A stretch of 64,000 nt of DNA from Desulfobacterales bacterium (GTDB taxonomy: Bacteria; Desulfobacterota; Desulfobacteria; Desulfobacterales; UBA5616): assembly GCA_046483495.1 (NCBI GenBank), contig JAWODC010000064.1:32001-96000 (forward strand), written 5' to 3'. Shown piece after piece: positions 1,882 through 20,293 of this stretch. The notes beneath the pieces are model-generated. The model worked only from the letters and a program-made list of their open reading frames with translations, ran no database searches and had not been told where the DNA came from. The stretch's first letter is position 1; each line of letters starts with the position of its first letter. A program made the position numbers and the translations under genes.

Positions 1882-2757
1882 TTAAATGACCTTGTTCAGA
1901 GGGTATTCAATGACACCTTCCGCCCCAATGTTCAGCAGCTTGGGAATGAGACCCCGTACAACGTCCGAACTGATCACGGTTTCAACGGAAAACCAGTTTT
2001 TCTGATACAGCGGTGAAACCGTGGGAGCATTCAGGCTGGGCAACAGATCGACCACCTTTTCCAGTGCGCCTTCCGGCACATTCATTTTCAGCCCCACCAT
2101 CTTTTCTCCCAAAAGGGCTCCTTTGAGCAGCAGGGCCATTTGTTCGATCTTTTGCCGTTTAAACGGGTTATTCCAGGCATTGTGATTTGCGATCAACTGG
2201 GTATTGGTCTGCATTAACTCATGTATAATTTTAAGACCATGCGCTTTTATCGTGCTCCCGGTCTCCGTCACTTCCACGACAGCATCCGCCAACCCTGATA
2301 CCACTTTGGCCTCGGTCGCCCCCCAGGAAAATTCCACCGACACATCAATGTTTCGGGACGCAAAATAGGCTTTTGTGAATTCGACCAACTCGGTCGCGAT
2401 TTTCTTTCCCTCGAGGTCATCGAGCGTTCTGACGGAAGAATCATAGGGAACGGCCAGTACCCACCTGGCGGGCTTTGCGCTTGTCTTCGAATACACCAGA
2501 TCACAAACCACATGGACATCCGACCGATTTTCAGCAATCCAATCCCTTCCGGTCAGGCCCGCATCCAATGTGCCGTTTTCAACATAACGCGACATCTCCT
2601 GAGCCCGGCAGATGGCGCATTCGATGGTCTCATCGTTTATTTCAGGAAAATAACTTCTTCCATTGACGTTGATCTTCCAACCGGACCGTCTGAACAATTC
2701 GATGGTCGCATCTTGCAGGCTTCCTTTGGGGATGCCGAGTTTGAGCGTATTCTCCAT
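1882..2757 (-). CDS. hisG: ATP phosphoribosyltransferase (long form)
   Basis: [12 protein letters not shown] and VETG-like motifs, C-terminal regulatory domain (APTVSPL). Confidence 0.95.
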
Positions 2758-3131
2758 TACCTGTATACCTCCTTGGGATCAAAGTGTTTGATGCCGTCCA
2801 CCGTAACGGCATTACCGTCCACCCGGTTAAAAAAACAACTTTGATATCCCTTATGGCAGGCCGCCTTGCCGATCTGTTCGACTTTCAATAGAACGGTGTC
2901 CCTATCGCAATCGATGCGAATTTCTTTTACCTGCTGCACATTCCCGGACGTTTCCCCTTTGATCCACAGCTTCTTTCGGCTGCGGCTGTAATAGGTGGCC
3001 TTTTTCGTATTCAGTGTAGCTTCCCATGCCTCGCGGTTCATGAAAGCCAGCATCAGCACTTCTCCGGTCTCATGGTCCTGAACGATAGCCGGTATCAAAC
3101 CGCCGGTTTTTTCAAAATCGAGTTCGATCAT
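2757..3131 (-). CDS. hisI: Phosphoribosyl-AMP cyclohydrolase
   Basis: [21 protein letters not shown] and [10 protein letters not shown] motifs. Confidence 0.95.
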
Positions 3132-3321
3132 GATCTTCCCTTTTATCGAATGCACGAATATACGCCGTCAATCTTCGTAGCAAAACCCTAAAAACTTTAA
3201 TTCCTACCATAACTTCATAGAAAGTCAATTCAATTTTATCTCTTGATTGTTGCCTTAAAAATTGCTTAGATGCGTCAAACATTGCCAATAATGACTCAAT
3301 GATTCAAGGATTTCGGTTTTT

Positions 3322-5730
3322 ATGAAAATCAGAAAAAAAAGAACCTCCCAAATTCTAAAGAAAAGAGCAAAGAAACAAAATAAAAGCGTCCAGCGAAGGC
3401 TTTTTGGATGGGTATTAGCCGGGATTTTCATCGCCGTAATCACTGGAGCAGCGGTTCTCTTCGGCCTGTTTTTCTTTCTAAGCCGGGATTTGCCTAAAAT
3501 TTCAACCCTGGCGGATTATCGACCCCCCATTATCACCACGGTGTACTCGGATGATGGGCGGAAAATCGGAGAATTTTACCGGGAAAGGCGAATCGTCGTC
3601 CCGCTTGAAGGAATACCCGAGATGTTGAAGCAGGCATTCGTCGCCGCAGAAGATGCCCGATTCTATCACCATCAGGGGGTGGATATCATCAGTATCATCA
3701 GGGCCTTCATTAAAAATCTGGAGGCGGGGGCGATCGTTCAAGGCGGCAGCACCATTACGCAACAGGTCACGAAATCGTTTTTCCTGACGCCGGAACGGAG
3801 TTATACCCGTAAAATCAAAGAAGCGATTCTCGCCTACCGGATTGACCAGGGGTTTTCCAAAGATGAAATTTTGTTTTTGTATTTAAACCAGATTTACCTG
3901 GGACACGGTGCATACGGCGTAGAGGCGGCCGCACAAAATTATTTCGGAAAATCGGTGAAAGCGTTGAGCTTGGCTGAATGCGCCCTGCTCGCCGGTCTGC
4001 CCCAGGCGCCGAGCAAATATTCCCCTTTCAGAAACCCGGAAATGGCCAAACAGCGGCAGATTTACGTACTCAATCGTATGGTCGCCGAGGGATACATCAC
4101 GAATATTCAGGCAACGGAAGCGATCAATGAAGAAACGGACATCAAGCCCAGGCGAAACTGGTTTATTGAATCGGTGCCGTATTTCACGGAATATGTTCGG
4201 CAGTATATCCAAAAAAAATACGGTTCCTATTCGCTATACAATGACGGCCTGAAGGTATACACCACTGTCAATATCGAAATGCAGCAAGCTGCCAAGCGCC
4301 AAGTCCAAAAGGGACTTGCCCGATTGGACAAGCGCCGGGGATACAGGCGACCATTGCAACACCTGGAGATGGCGGAAATTGAAACGTATTCCGAAAACCT
4401 GAAAGAAACGGTCAATGACTCGACCGTGGAAAAAGGGCAAATCGTTGAAGGTGTCATAATCGATATCGATGATGAGGAAAATTTCGCCGTCGTTCGAATG
4501 GCGGAGATGCGCGGCATTCTGAAACTTTCAGATATGAATTGGGCAAGGAAACCGGACCCGGAAAAAGCGACATACGAAGACCCTGTTCGGCAAATAGGGC
4601 ATGTATTGACAGTGGGAGATGTCGTTAATGTCAGACTGAAAGAAAAAAATCCGGATAACGGTACGTGGGAACTTTCACTGGAACAAACCCCGGAAGTTCA
4701 GGCGGCGCTGCTCTGTATCGAAGCGGAAACCGGCCATGTCAAAACCATGGTTGGAGGACGCGACTACAATGAAAGCCAATTTAACCGCGCAATTCAATCA
4801 CGGCGCCAACCGGGCTCCGCATTTAAGCCGATCATTTATGCAGCGGCCCTGGACAGGGGGTATACACCGGCCACGATGCTCATCGACTCCCCTATCGTCT
4901 ATCATAATGAAGCCGAAGATTCAAAATGGAAGCCGAAAAATTACGAAGAAACGTTTCACGGCCCCACGCTTTTACGTAAGGCATTCGCCGAATCCGTCAA
5001 TGTTGTCACAATAAAGCTTCTCCAGGATATCGGAATTGACTATGTAATCGATTACGCCCGGCTGTTGGGGATTTCTTCCGAGATCGAACGGGACCTTTCC
5101 ATTGCCTTGGGTTCTTCGGGTATTTCCCTGCTGGAGATGGTGCAGGCCTATTCCGTCTTCGCCAACCAGGGCTACCGCATCGAACCGGCATTTGTAACAA
5201 AAGTGGTCGATCGTGACGGCAATGTCCTCGAGGAGAACATGCCGAAAAAGGAGCGGGTGATCGAGTCGAGCACGGCCTACATTATGACCAGCCTCATGGA
5301 AAGTGTCGTCAATCATGGTACGGGCAGGCGGGTTCGCGCACTGAACCGTCCGGTAGCCGGTAAAACCGGAACGACCAACAATTTATACGATGCGTGGTTT
5401 GTCGGTTATACCCCGCGGTATATTACCGGGACCTGGGTGGGATTCGATGAAGAAAAGCCCTTGGGAAAGCATGAAACCGGCGCTCGGGCGGCCTCCCCCA
5501 TTTGGCTGGGTTTTATGCAAACCGTTTTGAAAGATCTGCCTGTGCGGGTTTTTCAGGTCCCCGACGGTGTTGTTTTTTCCAAAATAGACGCCGAAACCGG
5601 CCTGCTTCCGATCCCGGAATCGGAGAGCACCCTGTTTGAATGCTTTAAGGAGGGCACTGTCCCGACAGAATATACGCCCAAACCCGATACGATATCCGCA
5701 CCGGATGATTTTTTCAAATCCGGACTCTGA
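3322..5730 (+). CDS. mrcA: Class A penicillin-binding protein 1A
   Basis: N-terminal TM, transglycosylase EDARFY and GGSTITQQ, transpeptidase SAFK, SVN and KTG motifs. Confidence 0.92.
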   Translation: MKIRKKRTSQILKKRAKKQNKSVQRRLFGWVLAGIFIAVITGAAVLFGLFFFLSRDLPKISTLADYRPPIITTVYSDDGRKIGEFYRERRIVVPLEGIPEMLKQAFVAAEDARFYHHQGVDIISIIRAFIKNLEAGAIVQGGSTITQQVTKSFFLTPERSYTRKIKEAILAYRIDQGFSKDEILFLYLNQIYLGHGAYGVEAAAQNYFGKSVKALSLAECALLAGLPQAPSKYSPFRNPEMAKQRQIYVLNRMVAEGYITNIQATEAINEETDIKPRRNWFIESVPYFTEYVRQYIQKKYGSYSLYNDGLKVYTTVNIEMQQAAKRQVQKGLARLDKRRGYRRPLQHLEMAEIETYSENLKETVNDSTVEKGQIVEGVIIDIDDEENFAVVRMAEMRGILKLSDMNWARKPDPEKATYEDPVRQIGHVLTVGDVVNVRLKEKNPDNGTWELSLEQTPEVQAALLCIEAETGHVKTMVGGRDYNESQFNRAIQSRRQPGSAFKPIIYAAALDRGYTPATMLIDSPIVYHNEAEDSKWKPKNYEETFHGPTLLRKAFAESVNVVTIKLLQDIGIDYVIDYARLLGISSEIERDLSIALGSSGISLLEMVQAYSVFANQGYRIEPAFVTKVVDRDGNVLEENMPKKERVIESSTAYIMTSLMESVVNHGTGRRVRALNRPVAGKTGTTNNLYDAWFVGYTPRYITGTWVGFDEEKPLGKHETGARAASPIWLGFMQTVLKDLPVRVFQVPDGVVFSKIDAETGLLPIPESESTLFECFKEGTVPTEYTPKPDTISAPDDFFKSGL

Positions 5731-6745
5731 CACGATTAACCCATAACGTGTTCCTATCGATATGATCATCCGGGATGACCCGGACCGACCCCGGCCCGAA
5801 CCGACGCATCAGAATGGCAATATTTCGGTTGTTGAGGCCCCGAATCTTGGAAATGTTACTCGGGTTCGAACGGATAGTGAGATCGGCCGGACCTGTCTTG
5901 TTGTGCACCACTTCCAGGATACGGTCCAAAAACATTTCGGAGTAAACCAGGTGACCGAATGACGGATGATAAGGTCCGGCAATGAGAACGCCTTCTTTTT
6001 GCATTTCCGGCGTCGGCTGCAGACCCATTCGGATTACCGGGATATCGTTTTCTTTAAGTGAAGTGTAAATGCCCTTTACCCGGGAAACGCTCTCTTCAAG
6101 AGAAAGCGGGGTATATCGGCCGTTTTTGTACCACCGGGCCAGCAGACTGCGGGAAAAGACCAATGTCGGATAAATACGGACGAAATCCGGACGAAGGCTG
6201 ATGACCGCCTTCAACGTTTTTTCCAATCGAGGTTCATCATCACCCGGAAGCCCCACCATGATTTGTAGGCCCACATTCAAGCCTTGCCGTCTCAAAAGAT
6301 GAACGGCTGATACCGTGTCGGAGGGTGTATGGCCCCTGCCGGAGATTCGAAGCACTTCGTCGTCCATGGACTGGGCACCGATCTCGACGGTTGAAAACGG
6401 GTATGGTGCAATTAGTGCGAGACGGCTTTCACGGACGGTATCCGGGCGGGTGGAACATCGTATGCCGTGGACGGCCCCCGTTTTCGTAAAAGGAGCGACT
6501 GTTTCGAGCAGAAAGTGAATGGTCTGTTCCGGAAGACCCAGGAAATTGCCGCCGAAAAACGCAATTTGGGTTTCGGCTCTAAAACCGGGTCTGCCCGCAA
6601 GATGCCGGTGTATGGTTTGAAAAATGTCCGCTTTGGTCGGAAGCGTCCGGGCAATCCCTGTGATATGATGCTGATTGCAGAATACGCAATTGTGGGGGCA
6701 ACCGGCCTGGGGAATGAATATCGGTATAATATACGGTTTTTTCAC
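5714..6745 (-). CDS. Elp3/YhcC-like radical SAM protein
   Basis: CPHNCVFC motif, STRPD, GPYHP; coupled to rnc. Confidence 0.88.
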   Translation of the reverse strand: MKKPYIIPIFIPQAGCPHNCVFCNQHHITGIARTLPTKADIFQTIHRHLAGRPGFRAETQIAFFGGNFLGLPEQTIHFLLETVAPFTKTGAVHGIRCSTRPDTVRESRLALIAPYPFSTVEIGAQSMDDEVLRISGRGHTPSDTVSAVHLLRRQGLNVGLQIMVGLPGDDEPRLEKTLKAVISLRPDFVRIYPTLVFSRSLLARWYKNGRYTPLSLEESVSRVKGIYTSLKENDIPVIRMGLQPTPEMQKEGVLIAGPYHPSFGHLVYSEMFLDRILEVVHNKTGPADLTIRSNPSNISKIRGLNNRNIAILMRRFGPGSVRVIPDDHIDRNTLWVNRVRVRI

Positions 6746-11848: not shown

Positions 11849-12679
11849 CTATTCCTCGAGTCTTAAGATCATCAGATCCTCGGCCAATACGAGGGGGCCG
11901 GAATACGCCGTTCGACATTCTTTTTCAGCCGTAAGTCTGTCACATTCCGGGTAGAAATGCGTCAAAACGAGTTTCCCGACATTTGCCAGTCGCGCTGTTT
12001 TCCCGGCCAGGCCCGGCGACATGTGGCCTTTCATTTTTCGGTCGGCCGGGGTCGAGGCATCACAAATCAGCAGATCCGCATTTTGAGCCAGGGACACCAG
12101 ATCATCGCAAAAATCCGTATCACCCGAATAGACCATGGATTTACCGCCGGCATCGGTAATTCTGAAGGCAATGCTCTCGGGGTTGTGGCTAACCGGAACG
12201 GTATCCACCAAAAACGAAACGAAATCGATTCGGTCAGGTTCTGAAACACTCATTTCCACACATTTCAGGGGCCATCCATCCGCCTCGGGTTCTATCCAGC
12301 GTCCGTACACGCTTCTCAGCCGGTCGTAAAAATCGGACAAGCCCTTTCCTCCAACGATCGTAACGCCTTTTTTCTGAAAAACCGTGCGTGTGTGTTTATA
12401 TGAAAAAAGAAACGAAGCCAGTTCGCCGGTATGGTCCGGATGAAAATGGCTGATAAACACATGCGAAATATCGAAAATGGTCGCACCGGCGGTCAGCAGT
12501 CGAAAAATAGTGCCCGGTCCGATATCGATCAGCAGCTTCAGTCCCGACACCTCCAAAAGGGCGGCACTGGAGCTTCGCGCAAGAGAAGGAACGCAGGTGC
12601 CCGAACCCAGAATGGTTACCGTGGTCGCTTTGTCGAAAAAGCGGACCTCATCGGGATGAGAATTATTTTTTTCCTGCAT
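11849..12679 (-). CDS. MBL-fold metallohydrolase (RNase Z-like)
   Basis: ILGSGT, SHFHPDH, YSGDT and LTHFY motifs; start approximate. Confidence 0.85.
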   Translation of the reverse strand: MQEKNNSHPDEVRFFDKATTVTILGSGTCVPSLARSSSAALLEVSGLKLLIDIGPGTIFRLLTAGATIFDISHVFISHFHPDHTGELASFLFSYKHTRTVFQKKGVTIVGGKGLSDFYDRLRSVYGRWIEPEADGWPLKCVEMSVSEPDRIDFVSFLVDTVPVSHNPESIAFRITDAGGKSMVYSGDTDFCDDLVSLAQNADLLICDASTPADRKMKGHMSPGLAGKTARLANVGKLVLTHFYPECDRLTAEKECRTAYSGPLVLAEDLMILRLEE

Positions 12680-13652
12680 GGTGCTGTACTTGACGGATAA
12701 TCCAATTTTGCAGCTTGGCGGCATCCTGGTAATCCACCTGTCCGCTCAGGTCTGAAAGCATAATTTCAGCCCTTGCCATGCTTTTATGCCCTCCTGCTGA
12801 GCCGACATGACCGAAGCTTTTTTTTACAATGTTACCGGAATTTTTTCGAATACCATCATTTCTGAATATGACGATCAGCCGATTGGACCATATCCCGGAA
12901 ACGATACTCCAGTTGATATCATTCACCCGCAGAAAGAAATCGGCGATCAGGACGCACGCATCGGGGTTTGAAATGGGCCCTAAGTGAACGAACACCCGTT
13001 TTTTTCGGCGTTTCATGTTTTCGAGGGCCGTTCTGAAATGCTTCAAAAACTCCGCCGGGATTTCGGATTGTTCGATTTTTCGAATAATATAAGGATTCGA
13101 ATGGTGAAACAGGAACTGAAATGCGCGGAGGTCCTCCACAAGCGTCTGACGTTCAAAATTGCTGGTATCCGTTTTAATAGCATAAAAAAGGGCGGTGGCA
13201 AGCTTTGCCGATGGTTTGATTTTAGCGGCGCGCAGGTATTCCGTGAGCATGGTGGCAGTGGCGCCGTAACTGGGGCGAATGTCCTTAAAAGCGGCCTCGG
13301 GCGCGGTGTCCGGATGATGATCGATGATCACATCGAATGTAAACCTCTGAAAATGCACATTGTGGTCCGGCTGGGAATCGACCATAACGAACCGGGCAAA
13401 CCGCTCAGGCTCTATTTGCGAGACATGGGTCAAATTCACGCCCAACAGCCGAAGCATCGTCAGGTTATCCGGGCGCTTGACGATATTGATATTGGATATG
13501 ACCACACCGGCCACTTTTCGCCACAACAGCCGTTTTACCGCCATCGCACACGCAATGGCATCCGGGTCTGCATTAATGAGTATCAATACGTTGTCTTCAC
13601 TGGTAAAATGCGTATAAAAGCGTCTCAGCCGCTCAGATGTCGATATTTTCAC
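12663..13652 (-). CDS. DHH/DHHA1 phosphoesterase
   Basis: DPDA, IIDHH, TDT and AGGH motifs. Confidence 0.88.
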   Translation of the reverse strand: MKISTSERLRRFYTHFTSEDNVLILINADPDAIACAMAVKRLLWRKVAGVVISNINIVKRPDNLTMLRLLGVNLTHVSQIEPERFARFVMVDSQPDHNVHFQRFTFDVIIDHHPDTAPEAAFKDIRPSYGATATMLTEYLRAAKIKPSAKLATALFYAIKTDTSNFERQTLVEDLRAFQFLFHHSNPYIIRKIEQSEIPAEFLKHFRTALENMKRRKKRVFVHLGPISNPDACVLIADFFLRVNDINWSIVSGIWSNRLIVIFRNDGIRKNSGNIVKKSFGHVGSAGGHKSMARAEIMLSDLSGQVDYQDAAKLQNWIIRQVQHHAGKK

Positions 13653-13851
13653 GATGGTCCTTCTTTTGCCAATTATTCCTTTTTTTTAAGTCCATTCTAT
13701 GACGTAAGGTCGTTAATTTCAAACCATTTTTCTCGTCTGCAGCCGTACGAAAAAAGATATGAGCTTTCTCTTGACAGTATAATGATTTTCCTGGTATTCG
13801 GCTGGTTTGGTTTAATCAATTTAGACTTCCCCTAATATAATAGGTGGCTTA

Positions 13852-14121
13852 ATGCCGAAACAAAAAAGAGCACATAGTCGCCAGACCACTAATTGGGCCG
13901 AAGGCCTTACCATTATTATGCAGTTGGGCCTGAACATGGCGGGAAGCATCATTTTTTGTTTTTTCGTTGGATATTATATTGACAAATGGCTTTCGACAAA
14001 AGGGATTTTTACGGTGGTTTTTACTATTCTTGGCGTAATCGGTGGCGGATATACTTCATATCGGCAGATAATGGAATTCTCAGAGAAAAAAAATAATCGA
14101 AAAAACAATGAAATCGGTTAG
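13852..14121 (+). CDS. AtpZ/AtpI-family (ATPase gene1) membrane protein
   Basis: Two TMs with GYYIDKW motif; first gene of the atp Fo operon. Confidence 0.8.
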   Translation: MPKQKRAHSRQTTNWAEGLTIIMQLGLNMAGSIIFCFFVGYYIDKWLSTKGIFTVVFTILGVIGGGYTSYRQIMEFSEKKNNRKNNEIG

Positions 14122-14494
14122 GACGATCCAGAAAAAATACTGTTCAAGAGCCATGATGTTTTCCATTTGCATCAGCTTGGGCTTCATTCTTCTTGGAGAA
14201 AAAGCAATAGGAAAGGGAATTGTTCTTGGAACACTGTTCAGCATCATCAATTTTGTCCTTATCGGGGAAATGCTCCCTGCCCGGTTCGCCAAAGGAAAGA
14301 GAAAAACTTTCTTCATCAGTCTGGGATCGATCTTTTTCAGATACCTTCTGCTGGCGATTCCGATCGTACCTGCAGTCAAATATGACACATTCAACTTGTA
14401 TGCAACGGTCGCCGCACTCTTTTCCGTTCAACTGATGATAATAGCCGAACATATATTAGGGATTCTTCCCTTAAAACGAAAACAACAGGCCTAG
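14108..14494 (+). CDS. atpI: ATP synthase subunit I (c-ring assembly factor)
   Basis: Four-TM 128-aa protein with INF and FRY motifs directly upstream of atpB. Confidence 0.75.
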   Translation: MKSVRTIQKKYCSRAMMFSICISLGFILLGEKAIGKGIVLGTLFSIINFVLIGEMLPARFAKGKRKTFFISLGSIFFRYLLLAIPIVPAVKYDTFNLYATVAALFSVQLMIIAEHILGILPLKRKQQA

Positions 14495-14524
14495 CCGTCA
14501 TATCGATGCACAGGTGGAGTAGTC

Positions 14525-15199
14525 ATGAAAGAATTAGGAAAAATTCACCAATTGATCGTTCCATTCTTCGGACATGACATGGTGTTTAATTTAGAAGTTA
14601 TCCTCATGACGTGGATCGTTATCGCACTGCTTACCGTTTTTGGAATTTTAGCGGTTCGCAAAATGGGAATCATTCCGCATTACATACAGATGGTTGGAGA
14701 GATGTTCGTTTCACAAATGTATGGAATGACCGAAGATTCGCTGGGTAAAGAACTTGCCCGCAAGTACGCACCGATGATTTGCGCTCTATTCATGTTTTTG
14801 CTGTTGTCAAATTGGCTGGGTATCATTCCTCATCTTCATGAACCTACGAAAGATTTGAATACACCATTAGGAATGGGGATCATGGGTTTTTTTGTAGCCC
14901 ACTACGTGGGCATAAAGGAGAAAGGATTCAAGGGATATTTAGGTAATTATTTCGAACCTTTTTTCTTTATGCTGCCATTGAATATCATCGATGCCCTGTC
15001 CAAGGTAATCAGCATTTCCTTCCGTCTCTTCGGCAACATCATGGGAGGCTCTATTATCATTCTGGTGGTTTCTTATCTAACTTACAGTCTTGTTCTGCCG
15101 CCGATCTTGAATGTTTTTTTCGGTCTTTTTGTCGGAACAATCCAGGCATTTGTATTTACCATGCTTACCGTTACATATATTTCATTGCAGGTAAATTAG
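14525..15199 (+). CDS. atpB: ATP synthase Fo subunit a
   Basis: PTKDLN, stator Arg in SISFRLFGN, IQAFVFTML. Confidence 0.95.
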   Translation: MKELGKIHQLIVPFFGHDMVFNLEVILMTWIVIALLTVFGILAVRKMGIIPHYIQMVGEMFVSQMYGMTEDSLGKELARKYAPMICALFMFLLLSNWLGIIPHLHEPTKDLNTPLGMGIMGFFVAHYVGIKEKGFKGYLGNYFEPFFFMLPLNIIDALSKVISISFRLFGNIMGGSIIILVVSYLTYSLVLPPILNVFFGLFVGTIQAFVFTMLTVTYISLQVN

Positions 15200-15202
15200 G
15201 AT

Positions 15203-16177
15203 ATGGCAATCGATATTCAAACTTGGGTTAAGGTGGCAGCATTTGCAGGCGGCGGGCTTGCGATGGGTCTTGGGGCCATAGGAGCGGCTATCGGTGAAGG
15301 ATATACGGCCGCATCCGCCAACGCCGCAATTTCGAGGAATCCTGAAATTTCCGGAGATGTATTCAAATCCATGCTGATGGGACAAGCCATTGCCGAATCC
15401 GCATCGATTTTTGCGCTTGTTATTGCGATGATACTTTTGTTTTCAGATTTTTCGGCAAATTCCTACGTAATGATTAGTGTTTTGCTTGCCGCCGGTTTGT
15501 GCATGGGCCTCGGAGCGGTAGGATCCGGTGTCGGATCGGGATTTCCGGGCGGTGCGGCTTGCGAAGGGATGGCCCGCCAACCCAGTGCATCAGGTCGATT
15601 AACAACGAATATGCTGATTGGATCCGCAGTAGCCCAAACGCCGGCCATTTTCGCTCTGGTGACGGCCTTCATTCTTTTATTCACTGATTTTTCAACCCGA
15701 CCCGTATATCCTACATGGGCCGCCATTTTGGGTGCGGGATTCGCTTCCGGCTTTGGAGCAATCGGATCGGGATTGGGTGGTGGTTTGGTTGCCCAGACAA
15801 GCTGTTTGGGTGTTGCCCGTCAGCCTCTCGCCGCCACTCCGGTAACAAATGTCATGCTGCTGGGCCAAGCCGTAACTCAGACCACGGCAATTTACGGATT
15901 GTTGGTCAGTTTCATTCTTATATTCAAATTTTTCCCGGCAACGCCGGCAATCGCACCCGGCATGGCCCTCTTGGGAGCCGGACTGTGCATGGGGATCGGT
16001 GCTATCGGGTCGGGAGTTGGTGAAGGTCTGGCGGCACGCAGCGCCGTCGACTGGATTTCCAGGAATGAGGAGGCAATCCCGGATATTACGCGAGTAATGT
16101 TGGTAGGCCAGGCAGTGGCGGAATCCACCGGCATCTATTCCCTGGTTGTGGCTTTGGTTTTAATATTTGTAATCTGA
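15203..16177 (+). CDS. atpE: Four-hairpin fused Fo subunit c; hairpins 1 and 4 have Glu, 2 and 3 have Gln
   Basis: Four ~81-aa repeats with Gly-rich inner helix and RNP/RQP/RQP/RNE loops; outer-helix motifs ESASIF (E65), QTPAIF (Q145), QTTAIY (Q226), ESTGIY (E307). Confidence 0.93.
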   Translation: MAIDIQTWVKVAAFAGGGLAMGLGAIGAAIGEGYTAASANAAISRNPEISGDVFKSMLMGQAIAESASIFALVIAMILLFSDFSANSYVMISVLLAAGLCMGLGAVGSGVGSGFPGGAACEGMARQPSASGRLTTNMLIGSAVAQTPAIFALVTAFILLFTDFSTRPVYPTWAAILGAGFASGFGAIGSGLGGGLVAQTSCLGVARQPLAATPVTNVMLLGQAVTQTTAIYGLLVSFILIFKFFPATPAIAPGMALLGAGLCMGIGAIGSGVGEGLAARSAVDWISRNEEAIPDITRVMLVGQAVAESTGIYSLVVALVLIFVI

Positions 16178-16220
16178 CGATGTATTGTTATTTCATCACT
16201 TTTGTTTACAGGAGGATATC

Positions 16221-16469
16221 ATGGCAATCGAAGGAGCGGACATCATTCAATCGGCAGCATTTTTGGGAGCAGGATTGGCGATGGGTCTCGGTGCAATAGG
16301 CCCGGGAGTCGGCGAAGGTATGGCTGCGGCAAAAGCATGTGAAGCCATCGGAAAAAACCCCAAAGAAGCAGGACTGCTGACCCGAACCATGTTGGTGGGT
16401 CAGGCCGTATCCGAGTCAACGGGCATTTATTCCCTCGTAATCGCGTTGTTGCTTTTATTCGTAGTTTAA
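16221..16469 (+). CDS. atpE: Single-hairpin Fo subunit c, Na+-type two-carboxylate motif
   Basis: GGAGG RBS; 82 aa with P28, E32, V63, E65, S66, T67 and Y70. Confidence 0.95.
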   Translation: MAIEGADIIQSAAFLGAGLAMGLGAIGPGVGEGMAAAKACEAIGKNPKEAGLLTRTMLVGQAVSESTGIYSLVIALLLLFVV

Positions 16470-16491
16470 CCACAACATCTGGATCGGTTCC

Positions 16492-16944
16492 ATGGAGATC
16501 ATCAGCAATATTGCACTCATCAGTATCAATGAAACATTGATCATACAGGTGCTTTCCTTTTTGATATTTTTATTGATCATCAATCGTTTGATGTTTCGCC
16601 CGATAATCGAGATGATTTCCCGGCGGGAAACCCATATTGATCATGTAAAAAGAGAAATCGAACAGGCCGAAGTTGAACTGGACCAAATGAACGCCAGGCT
16701 GAAAGAGCAGGAAACTGTCGTCAAGGAAGAGGCCTTCGATCTGAAGAAGGAGCTGGAAGAGGCCGGTGGCCGAAAAGCAAGCGGCATTTACCTGGCGGTC
16801 AAGGAACAAATTACCGCAAACAAAAAAAAGGCGGAAGAGGAAATAAATTTTCAGATCGAAGCGTCCAAGAATCAAATTAAACAAGAGGCCGAGACGGTGT
16901 CCCTATCCATCATCGAACGAATATTGGATCGGAGATTAACCTGA
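16492..16944 (+). CDS. ATP synthase Fo subunit b'
   Basis: N-terminal TM (TLIIQVLSFLIF), FRPI...RR, long charged coiled coil. Confidence 0.88.
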   Translation: MEIISNIALISINETLIIQVLSFLIFLLIINRLMFRPIIEMISRRETHIDHVKREIEQAEVELDQMNARLKEQETVVKEEAFDLKKELEEAGGRKASGIYLAVKEQITANKKKAEEEINFQIEASKNQIKQEAETVSLSIIERILDRRLT

Positions 16945-17537
16945 TGTGCAGGTTCAGAAAAGTACTTAATCGGATCAACTGGCGGCTGCTCTTCGTATGT
17001 ATTTTCTGTTTTGCCGCAAAAGCGCTTGCCCAGGAGGGCGAAAACGATTGGCGTGCCACATATGATATCTTCATGATGTGGATTAATTTTTTTATTTTGG
17101 TAATTTTGTTCATAAAATTCGGCAAAAAACCGATAAAAAATTACCTGAAAGGACAAAAAGAAGAAGTCAGTGATGAGATCACCGGATTGGAGGGGCAGCG
17201 CAATGATATGCTGCGGCGGATTAAGGACATGGGCAAAGAAATGGAGGAAAGCCGGATTCGTTTTCAGGAGATAAAAGAGAAAATCATCAGCCAGGGTGAA
17301 GCGAAAAAACAGCAAATCATTGAAGAGGCCGAACTGCAAAGCAGGGTCATGCTCGAAGATGCCCAGCGACGCATCGAAAACCGTATTTTGAGCGCAAAAA
17401 AAGATGTGCATGCGCAGCTTGTAGATGAGGCCGTGGAATTAGCCTTTCAATCGATCGGACGATATATCACCGATGAAGACAACCGGAAATTTCTTCAGCA
17501 GTTTCTGGATTCAGCGGCCTTCAAGCAGCCGCTTTAA
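16944..17537 (+). CDS. atpF: ATP synthase Fo subunit b
   Basis: Signal-like N-terminus, WINFFIL TM, KKPI, coiled coil. Confidence 0.88.
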   Translation: MCRFRKVLNRINWRLLFVCIFCFAAKALAQEGENDWRATYDIFMMWINFFILVILFIKFGKKPIKNYLKGQKEEVSDEITGLEGQRNDMLRRIKDMGKEMEESRIRFQEIKEKIISQGEAKKQQIIEEAELQSRVMLEDAQRRIENRILSAKKDVHAQLVDEAVELAFQSIGRYITDEDNRKFLQQFLDSAAFKQPL

Positions 17538-17601
17538 CGGTTTCAAACTCATACCAACCCCGATATCGGCGTTGAGGCTGAAGAATTAAATTGTATTCAT
17601 C

Positions 17602-17630
17602 AGGGGTGAAGCATCAGCTTTACCCCTTTT
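17602..17630 (+). terminator. Intrinsic terminator closing the Fo operon
   Basis: AGGGGTGAAGC-ATCA-GCTTTACCCCT hairpin followed by T-rich tail, between convergent atpF and clpB. Confidence 0.75.
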
Positions 17631-17638
17631 GTTCGCTT

Positions 17639-20221
17639 TTACAGGCTGGAAAAAGAAATGCCTCCGGTTTCATTGACGTCGGCCAAAATCCGGTCGCCTT
17701 CCTTTATCCTGCCTTTTAAAATCTCCATGGACAGGGGGTTTTCAATATATTTTTGAATAGCCCTCTTCAAGGGCCGGGCCCCATAAACCGGATCAAACCC
17801 CTTTTCGGCCAAAAATTGCTCGGCCTCATCGGTCAGTTCCAGAGAAAGGTTCTGTTCGGAGATCCGTTCGGCAAGACGCCTCATCTGAATCTCAACGATA
17901 TCCACGATTTGTTCCCGTGTCAGGTTTTCGAAAATGATGATTTCATCGATTCTGTTTAAGAACTCGGGCTTGAATCCCATGCGGAGCGCTTCCAATACCC
18001 GTTTTTCCATTTCGTTCCGGTTGGCGCTCAGCTCCTGTATCCACTGGCTTCCCACATTCGATGTCATGATAATGATCGTGTTTTTGAAATCTACGGTTCT
18101 GCCGTGTCCATCGGTCATCCGGCCGTCATCCAATATCTGCAATAATACATTGAATACTTCCGGATGTGCTTTTTCAATTTCATCGAACAAAACAACCGAA
18201 TACGGGCGGCGCCGAACCGCCTCTGTCAAATACCCGCCTTCTTCGTATCCGACATACCCCGGGGGGGCGCCGATAAGCCGAGCCACGGCATGTTTTTCCA
18301 TGTATTCGGACATATCCACGCGGATGATGGCCTGGTCGCTGTCGAAAATAAATTCGGCAAGGGATTTGGCCAACTCCGTTTTTCCAACACCTGTCGGGCC
18401 CAAAAAAATAAATGACCCGATCGGACGGTTGGGGTCCTGCAGCCCGGACCGGGCTCGCCGCACGGCATTGGATACGGCCGATATGGCCTGGCGCTGACCG
18501 ATAACCCGTCGGCCGATACGATCTTCCATCTGCACCAGCTTCTCCCGCTCTCCTTCCATCATCTTGCTCACCGGTATACCCGTCCACCTGGAGATCACCT
18601 CGGCGATATCCTCGGCATCCACTTCCTCTTTCAGCATTTTTTTATCCGTCTGAAGGTTCAAGAGCTTTGTGTTCGCTTCATCGAGCTGCTTTTGGAGTTC
18701 GGCGGTCCTGCCGTACCGGAGTTCGGCGACTTTTGCGAGATCTCCCTCCCGTTCGGCCTGCTGCTCTTCGGTTTTAAGCCGTTCGATCTGCTCTTTTATG
18801 GAACGAATGGTCTGAATCGTTTCCTTTTCGCTTTGCCAGTGCATTTTCATGGCTCGAATTTCTTCGTTCATGGACTCGAGATCCCGCTCGATTTTGGCCA
18901 GCCTTTCCTTGGATGCAGGGTCGGTTTCCTTTTTCAACGCCTCCTTTTCGATTTCGGTTTGAAGGATTTTCCGCTGCACTTCGTCAATTTCGGTGGGCAT
19001 GCTGTCGATTTCGATACGCAGCTTGGATGCACACTCGTCGATCAGGTCGATCGCCTTGTCCGGCAGAAAACGATCCGAAATATACCGATCGGAAAGAGAA
19101 GCGGCCGAGAGAATGGCTGAATCTTTAATACGAACGCCGTGATGGACTTCATACTTCTCCTTCAATCCCCGTAAAATGGAAATGGTATCTTCCACCGTCG
19201 GTTCGGACACCAATACCGGTTGGAATCGCCGCTCCAATGCTGCATCCTTCTCGATATACTTCCGGTATTCGTTCAACGTTGTGGCCCCGACACACCGAAG
19301 TGTTCCTCGCGCCAGCGCCGGCTTGAGCATGTTGGAAGCATCCACGGCGCCCTCGGCCGCACCGGCACCCACGAGGGTGTGCAGCTCGTCAATAAACAAT
19401 ATGACTTCACCTTCGGCGGCCTCCACTTCCTTGAGCACCGCCTTGAGCCGGTCTTCAAATTCACCGCGGTATTTGGCTCCGGCTATCAGGGCGCCCATAT
19501 CCAGGGCGACAAGCCTTCTGTTTTTCAGGGTCTCGGATACGTCGCCGGACACGATTCGCTGGGCCAATCCCTCTACAATGGCCGTTTTGCCGACGCCGGG
19601 TTCACCGATCAAAACGGGATTATTCTTGGTCCTTCTCGAGAGCACCTGTACGATTCGCCGGATTTCCTCATCCCTGCCGATCACCGGATCGAGTTTTCCC
19701 ATTCGTGCCAAGTCCGTCAAATTTCGGCTGTACTTGTCCAATGCCTGATACTTTTCTTCCGGGTTCGGGTCGGTTATGCGCTGAGATCCGCGAATGCTCA
19801 TTAAAACCTTTAACACGGAATCCCGGACAACGCCGTACCGCGCCAAAATACTTGCGGCGTCACCGGATTTTTCGTCGATAATGGCCAGCAGAATATGCTC
19901 GATACTGACATATTCATCCTTCATCTTACCGGCTTCGGCAAACGCCGCCTCCAAGACGGACTTTGTGCGGGACGAAAGATACACCTCTCCGGCGCCGCTG
20001 ATTTTGGGCAGTTTATCGATAGCCATGGCAATCTCCTGGACCACGGCATCCGGAGAAACCCCTACTTTGCGGAACACGGTCCGCGTCATGCCCTCCGGTT
20101 CACTCAACATGGCACTGAGAAGATGTTCAGGCTCGATCTGCTGATTGCTGTGACGCGTCGCCAGAGATTGGGCGTTTTGAATCAATTCCTGGGATTTTAT
20201 AGTAAATTTATCGAATCTCAT
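17639..20221 (-). CDS. clpB: Chaperone ClpB
   Basis: Two AAA+ modules ([16 protein letters not shown]), coiled-coil M domain, AGGAGG RBS before MRFDKFT. Confidence 0.97.
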
Positions 20222-20259
20222 GATTCTCCTCCTAATGTAGGAAAATACGACAGTCTTTT

Positions 20260-20293
20260 TGCATGAAAGTAAGCATGCACCGTTTTTTGTCAA
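20260..20293 (-). promoter_or_regulatory. Putative sigma70 promoter of clpB overlapped by an inverted repeat
   Basis: Minus strand TTGACA-N16-TACTTT; TGCATG-N8-CATGCA (20260-20279) spans the -10 box. Confidence 0.5.

Follow-up and report, generated by a model that had tools for sequence, protein, structure and literature searches.

The window, a stretch of 64,000 nucleotides from a Desulfobacterales contig, carries at 13852-17537 on the plus strand an Fo operon without F1 genes, in the order atpZ-like, atpI, a, c4, c, b' and b (Table 1). The seven open reading frames, all on the plus strand, lie in the ORF list at the place given by an earlier sequence-only reading of this DNA, which had described a packed Fo operon followed by a terminator and a convergent clpB, with no F1 genes. 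Our results agree with that description: the genes were recognized by Pfam, neighbouring genes overlap by at most 14 bases or lie at most 43 bases apart, the operon ends in a terminator-like hairpin, and a profile search for alpha/beta, gamma, delta and epsilon gave no match anywhere on the contig of the module. The encoded proteins have the features of an Fo sector, namely subunit a with the stator arginine, a PF00137 c subunit with the membrane carboxylate, and two PF00430 b-type subunits. The listed reading frame of the single-hairpin c begins upstream of its ATG, at the TTG in position 16185.

Table 1. Features of the Fo operon and its downstream boundary (positions in the window).
Feature	Position	Strand	Evidence
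atpZ/atpQ-like small membrane protein, 89 aa	13852..14121	+	PF09527, 1.2e-16 (Pfam)
atpI, 128 aa	14108..14494	+	PF03899, 6.3e-07, above cut-off (Pfam)
Fo subunit a, 224 aa	14525..15199	+	PF00119, 3.3e-51 (Pfam)
c4, four fused c-subunit hairpins, 324 aa	15203..16177	+	four PF00137 stretches, 1.4e-60 (Pfam)
Single-hairpin c subunit, 82 aa from ATG	16221..16469	+	PF00137, 3.6e-19 (Pfam)
Stator subunit b', 150 aa	16492..16944	+	PF00430, 4.2e-12 (Pfam)
Stator subunit b, 197 aa	16944..17537	+	PF00430, 3.2e-16 (Pfam)
Terminator-like hairpin closing the Fo operon	17602..17627	+	11 pairs, 6 G-C, then T-rich tail TTTGTT
clpB, convergent with the Fo operon	17639-20293	-	ORF list

AtpI is a helper of c-ring assembly. 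AtpR (PF12966) had no match in the module, in contrast to the N-ATPase operon of the same genome (contig C11), in which it is present. The essential stator arginine of the module subunit a is R167, in the motif SISFRLFGN; when the three a subunits of the genome were aligned with those of two relatives, this residue did not vary. The module protein is 32% identical to the a subunit encoded on contig C69 and 34% identical to that of the N-ATPase.

The rotor genes are of two kinds. In an alignment of its hairpins, c4 retains the carboxylate in hairpins 1 and 4, and has glutamine in its place in hairpins 2 and 3. Among nine c4 orthologues, the glutamine of hairpin 2 was invariant, and hairpin 3 had glutamate in two. 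The best solved match of c4 was c1 of Acetobacterium woodii (PDB 4BEM, chain J; 7.8e-23), to which hairpins 1 and 2 align with the same Glu-then-Gln pattern. The single c is 99% identical to its orthologue from the same genus and has a full two-carboxylate Na+-type motif, E..V.EST..Y. We read this motif against the positions of the Fusobacterium nucleatum c11 ring (PDB 3ZK1), the ion site of which is given as Glu32/Glu65/Ser66/Thr67/Tyr70 in passages of PMC3692424. The full Na+ ligand set, and with it the ion site of that ring, is reproduced in the module c and also in the fourth hairpin of c4. The F. nucleatum ring consists of identical single hairpins and belongs to an ordinary single F1Fo. 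Hairpin 1 of c4 lacks T67 and Y70, and therefore the count of working sites is uncertain.

The c subunit of the ordinary ATP synthase, about 37% identical to the module c, was typed in the same way. It keeps five of the six Na+-site positions, Q32, E65, S66 and Y70 among them, and differs only at position 67, where leucine replaces threonine. The pattern Q-M/L-E-S-L-Y is common to 39 genomes, 24 of which carry the module and 15 of which do not; module presence does not track the ordinary c motif, and compensation by the module for one type of ordinary c, an idea considered at first, was dropped for this reason.

Module b has a full-length cytoplasmic helix with no delta-like (OSCP-like) tail, and is 25% identical to the F1-linked b encoded on contig C81. 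The module b' sequences form a clade apart from the F1-linked b' (SH-aLRT 98), as do the module b sequences (SH-aLRT 95), and the branching within the module clades parallels that of the F1-linked copies. As neither b nor b' has a delta-like tail, a free delta is needed. When the C-terminal parts of module b and b' were folded with the ordinary delta, the predicted complex reached an ipSAE of 0.55 compared with 0.00 for the best control, with at least 89% of contacts agreeing between runs and a partner pLDDT of at least 81. The ipSAE mark was reached by 116 of 157 solved complexes and by 2 of 215 mismatched pairs, but values up to 0.60 comprised only 18 of the 157 solved complexes together with both mismatched pairs that passed, and the result was graded as weak support. 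As b/b' and delta are a textbook pair, the pass may reflect likeness to solved complexes.

To place the module among the other ATP synthase genes, we counted them throughout the genome, a draft of 94 contigs that is 96.7% complete. It encodes three a subunits (on C45, C69 and C11), four c genes and five b-type genes, as compared with two each of alpha, beta, gamma and epsilon, and one free delta. A fifth PF00006 match, considered as a hidden F1, was rejected, as it is Rho. The ordinary ATP synthase is split into b'-b-delta-alpha-gamma-beta-epsilon on C81 and atpZ-I-a-c on C69, which is the layout that the sequence-only reading had called usual for this group. The second F1 lies within a complete N-ATPase operon on C11, with its own a, c and b; this b has a delta-like tail, and the operon has no free delta. 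With one F1 in the split operons and the other in the N-ATPase, the module is an Fo without an F1 of its own. Thus, it is not the only Fo of the genome, nor was a second F1 dedicated to it found in the genome, the two situations in which the sequence-only reading would have had to be abandoned.

The same reading had considered a module with its own b'b pair unusual, which does not hold within the order: among 41 sampled genomes, with gene fragments counted once, 25 carry the c4 module. In 22 of these carriers the number of a genes exceeds that of gamma genes by one, and in the other three by two, whereas a equals gamma in 14 of the 16 non-carriers. The majority of the carriers have a single gamma, and therefore no N-ATPase, yet they have one a more than gamma, as in the same-genus carrier G001 (two a, one gamma). 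In the order, one genome that is closed in a single contig has three a and two gamma genes, and the pattern of one extra a was seen in 37 of 40 carriers in the phylum sample, closed genomes included.

In 80 public Desulfobacterales loci, compared together with as much as 9 kb of flanking sequence on either side, the gene order Z-I-a-c4-c-b'-b is kept wherever the contig extends, and the atpZ-like gene opens the module in 78 of them (a truncated locus, L042, shows c4 only). No F1 gene was found within these flanks in any of the 80, except for one match of 23% identity. Roughly one locus in four has clpB downstream, and apart from it no candidate partner gene is conserved beside the module. Cultured carriers exist, as loci from records of Desulfosarcina variabilis and Desulfatibacillum alkenivorans have the module.

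A comparison of 18 loci from the phylum sample and from relatives revealed other arrangements. Nine of them (type A) have Z-(I)-a-cN-c-b'-b-delta-alpha-gamma-beta-epsilon as a single string, and each of these nine genomes has a second a/c set elsewhere. In one of the 18, from genome G423, the module abuts the F1 genes, as delta-alpha-gamma-beta-epsilon-Z-I-a-c4-c-b'-b with cell-wall genes upstream of delta; the rest of that genome yielded no further b'b, a or c of the classical type. Another of the 18 has the module immediately upstream of the F1 operon. In all, orthologous modules lie within or abut an F1 operon in 11 of the 18 loci across the phylum, and in other families of it a-cN-c is found inside or beside the sole delta-bearing F1 operon. 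The one-contig genome G061 has two a/c sets and one b'b pair. In one relative (G034) the module is without c4, and in another (G013) c4 is truncated and c, b' and b are absent, so that loss of c4 and decay of the module do occur. Overall, the module has a long history and a wide distribution.

All seven genes had dN/dS values of 0.004-0.22 against the same-genus genome, with saturated dS. A chance pattern of reading frames is ruled out, since dN is far below dS in all seven genes and their order recurs in the 80 public loci. The seven genes are intact, under purifying selection and conserved as a unit across the order, and Fo sets outnumber F1 sets. Zero-mismatch short contigs in metatranscriptome libraries of three studies covered parts of six of the seven genes, with strand and level not given and DNA carry-over possible; most of c4 was without such contigs. 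In published proteomics, ATP synthase is named once in the main text of PMC11887813, as a core-genome function, and no ATP synthase terms occur in the one text supplement of it that was searched, while its other supplements may hold per-protein data; no ATP synthase passage was found in PMC5109826. When 12500-18000 was scanned against Rfam with permissive settings, the sole match was a chance one to a miRNA model (E 0.72), and no Na+ or other riboswitch family was matched upstream of the operon. A sigma-54 promoter pattern had no match within the window, and a sigma-70 consensus scan had no plus-strand match ahead of the operon. By eye, TTGACA and TATAAT hexamers are seen at 13771-13784, with the wrong spacing.

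We propose that the operon encodes a complete second Fo without its own F1, which most likely assembles with the single delta-bearing F1 of the cell, encoded on another contig, and we give this reading a probability of about 0.6. The case for sharing of the ordinary F1 is good, albeit indirect, as it is built on the one free delta, on the one extra a in carriers that mostly have no N-ATPase, and on the modules embedded in or adjacent to F1 operons elsewhere. In such an enzyme, b' and b of the module would bind the ordinary delta and alpha3beta3, and the c4/c ring would dock onto the ordinary gamma-epsilon. Since c and hairpin 4 of c4 have the full Na+ ligand set, the enzyme would be expected to translocate Na+. 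Since two of the four c4 hairpins have glutamine for the carboxylate, fewer ions per turn would pass per hairpin than in a plain ring, provided that c4 sits in the ring as A. woodii c1 does. One head would then be served by two interchangeable motors, the ordinary a/c pair and a partly blanked Na+-type one. The second form could make ATP from a strong Na+ gradient or export Na+ at the cost of ATP, between which the sequence cannot decide.

A change of ion or of gear ratio is suggested by the ion-site motifs. The sequence-only reading had proposed a second Fo that shares the housekeeping F1 and lets the coupling ion or the ion/ATP ratio be switched; its first part gained the indirect support described above, but a switch between H+ and Na+ is not established, as only one of the six Na+-site positions is altered in the ordinary c. 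Tentatively, a single F1 might be driven either by the ordinary ring or by a Na+ ring partly blanked by c4, and swapping of the whole sector, stator included, might change both the ion and the number of ions per ATP in many sulfate reducers of marine and saline settings. It is commonly assumed that the c-ring of an organism sets a constant ions-per-ATP ratio for its ATP synthase. If the proposal is true, an environmentally important group, Desulfobacterales and neighbouring families, would have a choice of two ratios, and perhaps also of two ions, for a single head. The positions of the module, inside, beside or far from the F1 operon, or as the only Fo found besides that of the N-ATPase, offer a natural series for the study of F1 partner choice.

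Subunits of the two sets could instead mix, with c4 and c entering the ordinary ring or the ordinary a working with the module ring, so that the rotor would be tuned gradually rather than swapped. Cross-use of parts does exist in the family, as the two a/c sets of the nine type-A genomes must share one b'b pair and one F1, and the A. woodii ring combines c1 with c2/c3 (PDB 4BEM). However, the module supplies its own a, atpI, atpZ-like, b' and b, all under purifying selection, its c is only about 37% identical to the ordinary one, and its b'/b clades parallel the F1-linked copies, as separate complexes predict; we consider mixing improbable. Still less probable is that the module operates without any F1, for instance by gated conduction of Na+ or by driving another machine to which its rotor is coupled. 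An Fo without F1 is known to conduct ions, and the 80 loci have no F1 gene within 9 kb of the module, but the full b'b stalk, the only known job of which is to hold F1, is kept under selection, 11 of the 18 phylum loci have the module in or abutting an F1 operon, and no conserved flanking gene suggests another partner, clpB lying downstream in roughly one locus of four. It is very unlikely that the N-ATPase F1 is the partner of the module, even though there are exactly two F1 sets in the genome and both c subunits are of the Na+ type with two carboxylates, as the C11 operon has its own a, c and delta-tailed b and no free delta, the module b'b is tailless, and most carriers of the order, G001 included, have a single gamma. 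A dedicated F1 that is missing from the draft assembly, or a decaying duplicate, is just as unlikely, since against the incompleteness of the 94-contig assembly and the truncated module of one relative stand the extra a in 22 of 25 order carriers and in 37 of 40 carriers in the phylum sample, closed genomes included, and the intact reading frames with dN far below dS.

Our proposal of a second Fo on a shared F1 has partial precedents. A. woodii has a two-hairpin c and only one Fo, the genes of which share an operon with those of F1. As in the module, a multi-hairpin c blanked by glutamine is encoded there beside a single Na+-type c, giving a hybrid rotor (c1 with c2/c3; 4BEM), and the operon contains atpI; in contrast, the module c4 has four hairpins, and the module is devoid of F1 and is one of three Fo sets. 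The one-operon form was found in nine relatives, though with a second a/c elsewhere. The N-ATPase (atpDCQRBEFAG) is likewise an extra F-type membrane sector with a two-carboxylate Na+-type c and an AtpQ/Z-like first gene, but it has its own F1, AtpR, no delta, and one long b with a delta-like tail. The module is not an N-ATPase: there is no F1 gene on its contig and no AtpR, its b is of 197 aa without the tail, and its scores are below the NCBIfam 'alternate F1F0' cut-offs (120.9/302.1, 66.8/130.85 and 33.1/224.7). In the yeast V-ATPase, Vph1 and Stv1 are membrane-sector isoforms served by one V1. The likeness lies in one catalytic head with alternative membrane sectors; the yeast enzyme is, however, of the eukaryotic V-type, and only subunit a is exchanged, for targeting rather than for ion or ratio.

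In a literature search, no paper was found that describes the function of an Fo lacking F1 or of an F-type c with four hairpins, and passages of one preprint (10.64898/2026.10.01.756066) mention only truncated operons that retain cytoplasmic subunits. [quoted passage not shown] Unlike the present work, these passages mention no function, four-hairpin c or wide distribution. Like the module, the D. oleovorans duplicate is a second full Fo set away from the F1 genes in the same bacterial group, and its a and c copies group apart from the ordinary ones, as they do in the module; presumably, the two are the same.

The module consists of seven closely packed genes, with intergenic distances ranging from a 14-base overlap to a gap of 43 bases. 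The open reading frames, the Pfam matches, the terminator-like hairpin and the convergent clpB bore out, as written, the gene content claimed in the sequence-only reading, a complete Fo operon without F1 genes. Upstream of the module, a TTGACA and a TATAAT nearly adjoin, with another TATAAT 11 bases 5' of the module's start codon; a consensus scan called no plus-strand promoter at these hexamers.

Features of the module and its flanks (window positions; domain accessions from Pfam)
Feature	Position	Strand	Description
TTGACA + TATAAT	13771-13784		nearly adjoining
second TATAAT	13836-13841
module	13852-17537	+	seven genes
atpZ/AtpQ-like	13852-14121	+	89 aa, PF09527
AtpI	14108-14494	+	128 aa, PF03899
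subunit a	14525-15199	+	224 aa, PF00119
c4	15203-16177	+	324 aa, four PF00137 hairpins
c4 hairpin 3	15710-15946
single c	16221-16469	+	82 aa, one PF00137 hairpin
b'	16492-16944	+	150 aa, PF00430
b	16944-17537	+	197 aa, PF00430
terminator-like hairpin	17602-17627		3' of module
clpB	17639-20293	-	convergent with the module operon

The genome of the window, a 4.19 Mb draft of 94 contigs (96.7% complete), carries b'-b-delta-alpha-gamma-beta-epsilon on contig C81, atpZ-atpI-a-c on C69, a complete N-ATPase operon, beta-epsilon-AtpQ-(Na+/H+ exchanger)-AtpR-a-c-b-alpha-gamma, on C11, and the F1-less module on the window's own contig, C45. In total, there are three a genes, four c genes, five b-type genes, two genes each for alpha, beta, gamma and epsilon, and one free delta; the N-ATPase b bears a delta-like tail. 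C81 and C11 each have two of the five alpha/beta-type domains found; the fifth was rejected as a further F1 subunit because it belongs to Rho. Since there are three a genes to two F1 sets, one of them inside the complete N-ATPase, the module is a third Fo that lacks its own F1. Thus, the copy count called for by the sequence-only reading shows that this is not the only Fo in the genome, and the second F1, on C11, could pass for a dedicated one only formally, as it already owns a complete Fo. The exchanger of the C11 operon (410 aa, PF00999, 2.1e-40) is encoded between atpQ and atpR (fetched locus L023:6399-7631, minus strand); finding an antiporter gene inside the operon of a Na+-ATPase suggests that Na+ and H+ are handled in a coupled way.

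The module is an F1-less Fo, Na+-type as judged from its ligand residues, whose four-hairpin rotor subunit is partly blanked, and we consider it probable, at roughly 60%, that the cell's single delta-bearing F1 uses it as an alternative membrane sector. The proposal that a second Fo shares the housekeeping F1 gains indirect support from synteny in relatives and from the excess of a over gamma. In the tables of 41 sampled genomes of the order, where the fragments of a gene were tallied once, a exceeded gamma by exactly one in 22 of the 25 c4 carriers. In the other three, the excess was two: G008, with two c4 loci; G013, a 60% complete one-contig genome in which the only gamma seen was N-type; and G038, in which no gamma was found. 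Among non-carriers, a equalled gamma in 14/16, the exceptions being G002 (75% complete, no a found) and G034, of the same order, which still had one a more than gamma despite a c4-less module. The N-ATPase F1 is excluded as a general partner of the module, since most carriers, including the same-genus genome G001, have a single gamma and no N-ATPase.

Two of these genomes have altered modules. In G034 (locus L128, G034:C2:43000-52000, at about 1975-4700), the order is Z-I-a-c-b'-b, so that c4 is dispensable, or was lost, in some lineages. In G013 (L129, G013:C1:1920000-1930000, at 5011-6672, minus strand), c4 is truncated to about two and a half hairpins, the frame then extends into an ABC-transporter gene region, and c, b' and b are absent downstream; this module is decayed or rearranged.

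The strongest, albeit indirect, support for the window's module working with the ordinary F1 came from arrangements across the phylum. Multi-hairpin c was present in 42/401 genomes of the phylum sample, in open frames of about 160 to 616 aa, corresponding to some two hairpins up to six or more and often within an F1 operon (for example, G358:C47:245207-246655, G430:C137:1842-3284 and G169:C76:6525-7496). By table reading, 37 of the 40 positives examined further had one a more than gamma. Among 18 fetched loci, whose proportions are not those of a random sample because selection was guided by whether a and gamma shared a contig, nine were a single string Z-(I)-a-cN-c-b'-b-delta-alpha-gamma-beta-epsilon (cN, multi-hairpin c), six were stand-alone modules as in the window (one without c4), and one was truncated. 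In G351, a module with its own b'b lies immediately 5' of b'-b-delta-alpha-gamma-beta-epsilon, and in G423 the genes run delta-alpha-gamma-beta-epsilon-Z-I-a-c4-c-b'-b, with bactofilin, RodA and PBP2 genes 5' of delta. As the G423 genome (95% complete) yielded no further classical b'b, a or c, but only an N-ATPase set, its delta-bearing F1 seems to have no partner besides the c4-type Fo. The one-contig genome G061 has two a/c sets and a single b'b pair, so both rotors, if used, must share one stator and F1. In the two-contig genome G316, a module with a, a five-hairpin c, c, b' and b (G316:C2:45430-48528) lies on the smaller contig, which may be a second replicon, and ordinary a/c and F1 lie on the large one; an N-type gamma, but no N-type a, was found in this genome.

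The module is kept across an order and beyond; it is conserved, not a local accident. Full-length or almost full-length c4 occurred in 25 of the 41 genomes sampled from the order, which spans 36 families, each time with a single c after it. When species-representative genomes were scanned, 443 relatives were confirmed. Nearly all of the best 80 loci among them bear the Desulfobacterales label, with Desulfosarcina variabilis, Desulfatibacillum alkenivorans and Desulfonema limicola among the record titles, and all 80 keep the order Z-I-a-c4-c-b'-b as far as the contig extends; within up to 9 kb of the module, they showed no F1 genes except one 23%-identity match to the beta query (L114). Against the same-genus genome, dN was far below dS in all seven genes (dN/dS 0.004 for c, 0.04 for c4, 0.15 for b' and 0.22 for b, rough values because dS exceeds 1).

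In a quick IQ-TREE phylogeny of 82 b and b' sequences (HMM envelopes instead of full frames, SH-aLRT support only, loci with unrecovered b genes such as the truncated L142 excluded), b and b' separated with support of 100. Module b' formed one clade (98), one long branch apart, as did module b (95, G423 included), and F1-linked b' and b formed separate clades (97 and 89), paralleled by the branching within the module clades. Such separate, parallel clades identify the module b'b pair as an old, vertically inherited duplicate rather than a recent copy.

The ring ion site of F. nucleatum is described as Glu32, the Val63 backbone, Glu65, Ser66, Thr67 via water and Tyr70 in PMC3692424, and we read the c subunits in its numbering.

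Residues at ion-site positions (F. nucleatum ring numbering)
Subunit	32	65	66	67	70
module c	E	E	S	T	Y
c4 hairpin 4	E	E	S	T	Y
c4 hairpin 1	E	E	S	A	F
c4 hairpin 2	S	Q	T	P	F
c4 hairpin 3	G	Q	T	T	Y
N-ATPase c	E	E	S	T	Y
ordinary c (C69)	Q	E	S	L	Y

Clearly, the full ligand set in module c and hairpin 4 predicts a Na+-type Fo. Of the proposed switch of coupling ion, this part held, but the Na+/H+ contrast was not established, as the ordinary c lacks the Thr67 position only; a Na+/H+ difference between the two is possible. The ordinary pattern, with M or L at backbone position 63, was identical in 39/39 genomes (24 carriers and 15 non-carriers). Among nine orthologues, all had the Gln of hairpin 2 and 7/9 that of hairpin 3, with Glu in the two most distant (L035 and L036), which suggests stepwise blanking of sites. 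Among solved structures, c4 matched A. woodii c1 best (4BEM chain J, 7.8e-23) and shares with it the Glu-then-Gln pattern of hairpins 1-2. The module belongs with the F-type ATP synthases, and its rotor would be a variant of the A. woodii-type hybrid rotor. In the accessible portions of Koumandou & Kossida 2014 (PMC4154653), an Fo duplicate of Desulfococcus oleovorans is discussed as a species-specific duplication or possible Thermotogae transfer and assigned no function. This one mention, in one species and presumably of the same module, is what we found in print; the literature searched, as far as its text was accessible, described a function neither for an F1-less Fo nor for a four-hairpin F-type c.

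Module subunit a retains the essential Arg. A joint fold of the C-terminal parts of module b and b' and the ordinary delta scored an ipSAE of 0.55 versus 0.00 for the best control ('weak support' in the tool's rating), a pass that may reflect resemblance to solved complexes, since b and delta form a textbook pair. The runs shared at least 89% of contacts, with a partner pLDDT of at least 81. The score mark was reached by 116/157 solved complexes and 2/215 mismatched pairs; scores up to 0.60 comprised only 18 of the 157, plus both passing mismatched pairs.

Short zero-mismatch contigs from eight metatranscriptome runs of three studies, all salt-lake samples, covered parts of atpZ, atpI, a, the c4 end and c, b', b and clpB. 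These RNA-library contigs, which carry neither strand nor level and may include DNA carry-over, are compatible with transcription in nature. In one metatranscriptome contig, from run X1 at depth 17, an additional A follows window position 17303, inside b, a strain variant or assembly error that would shift the b frame.
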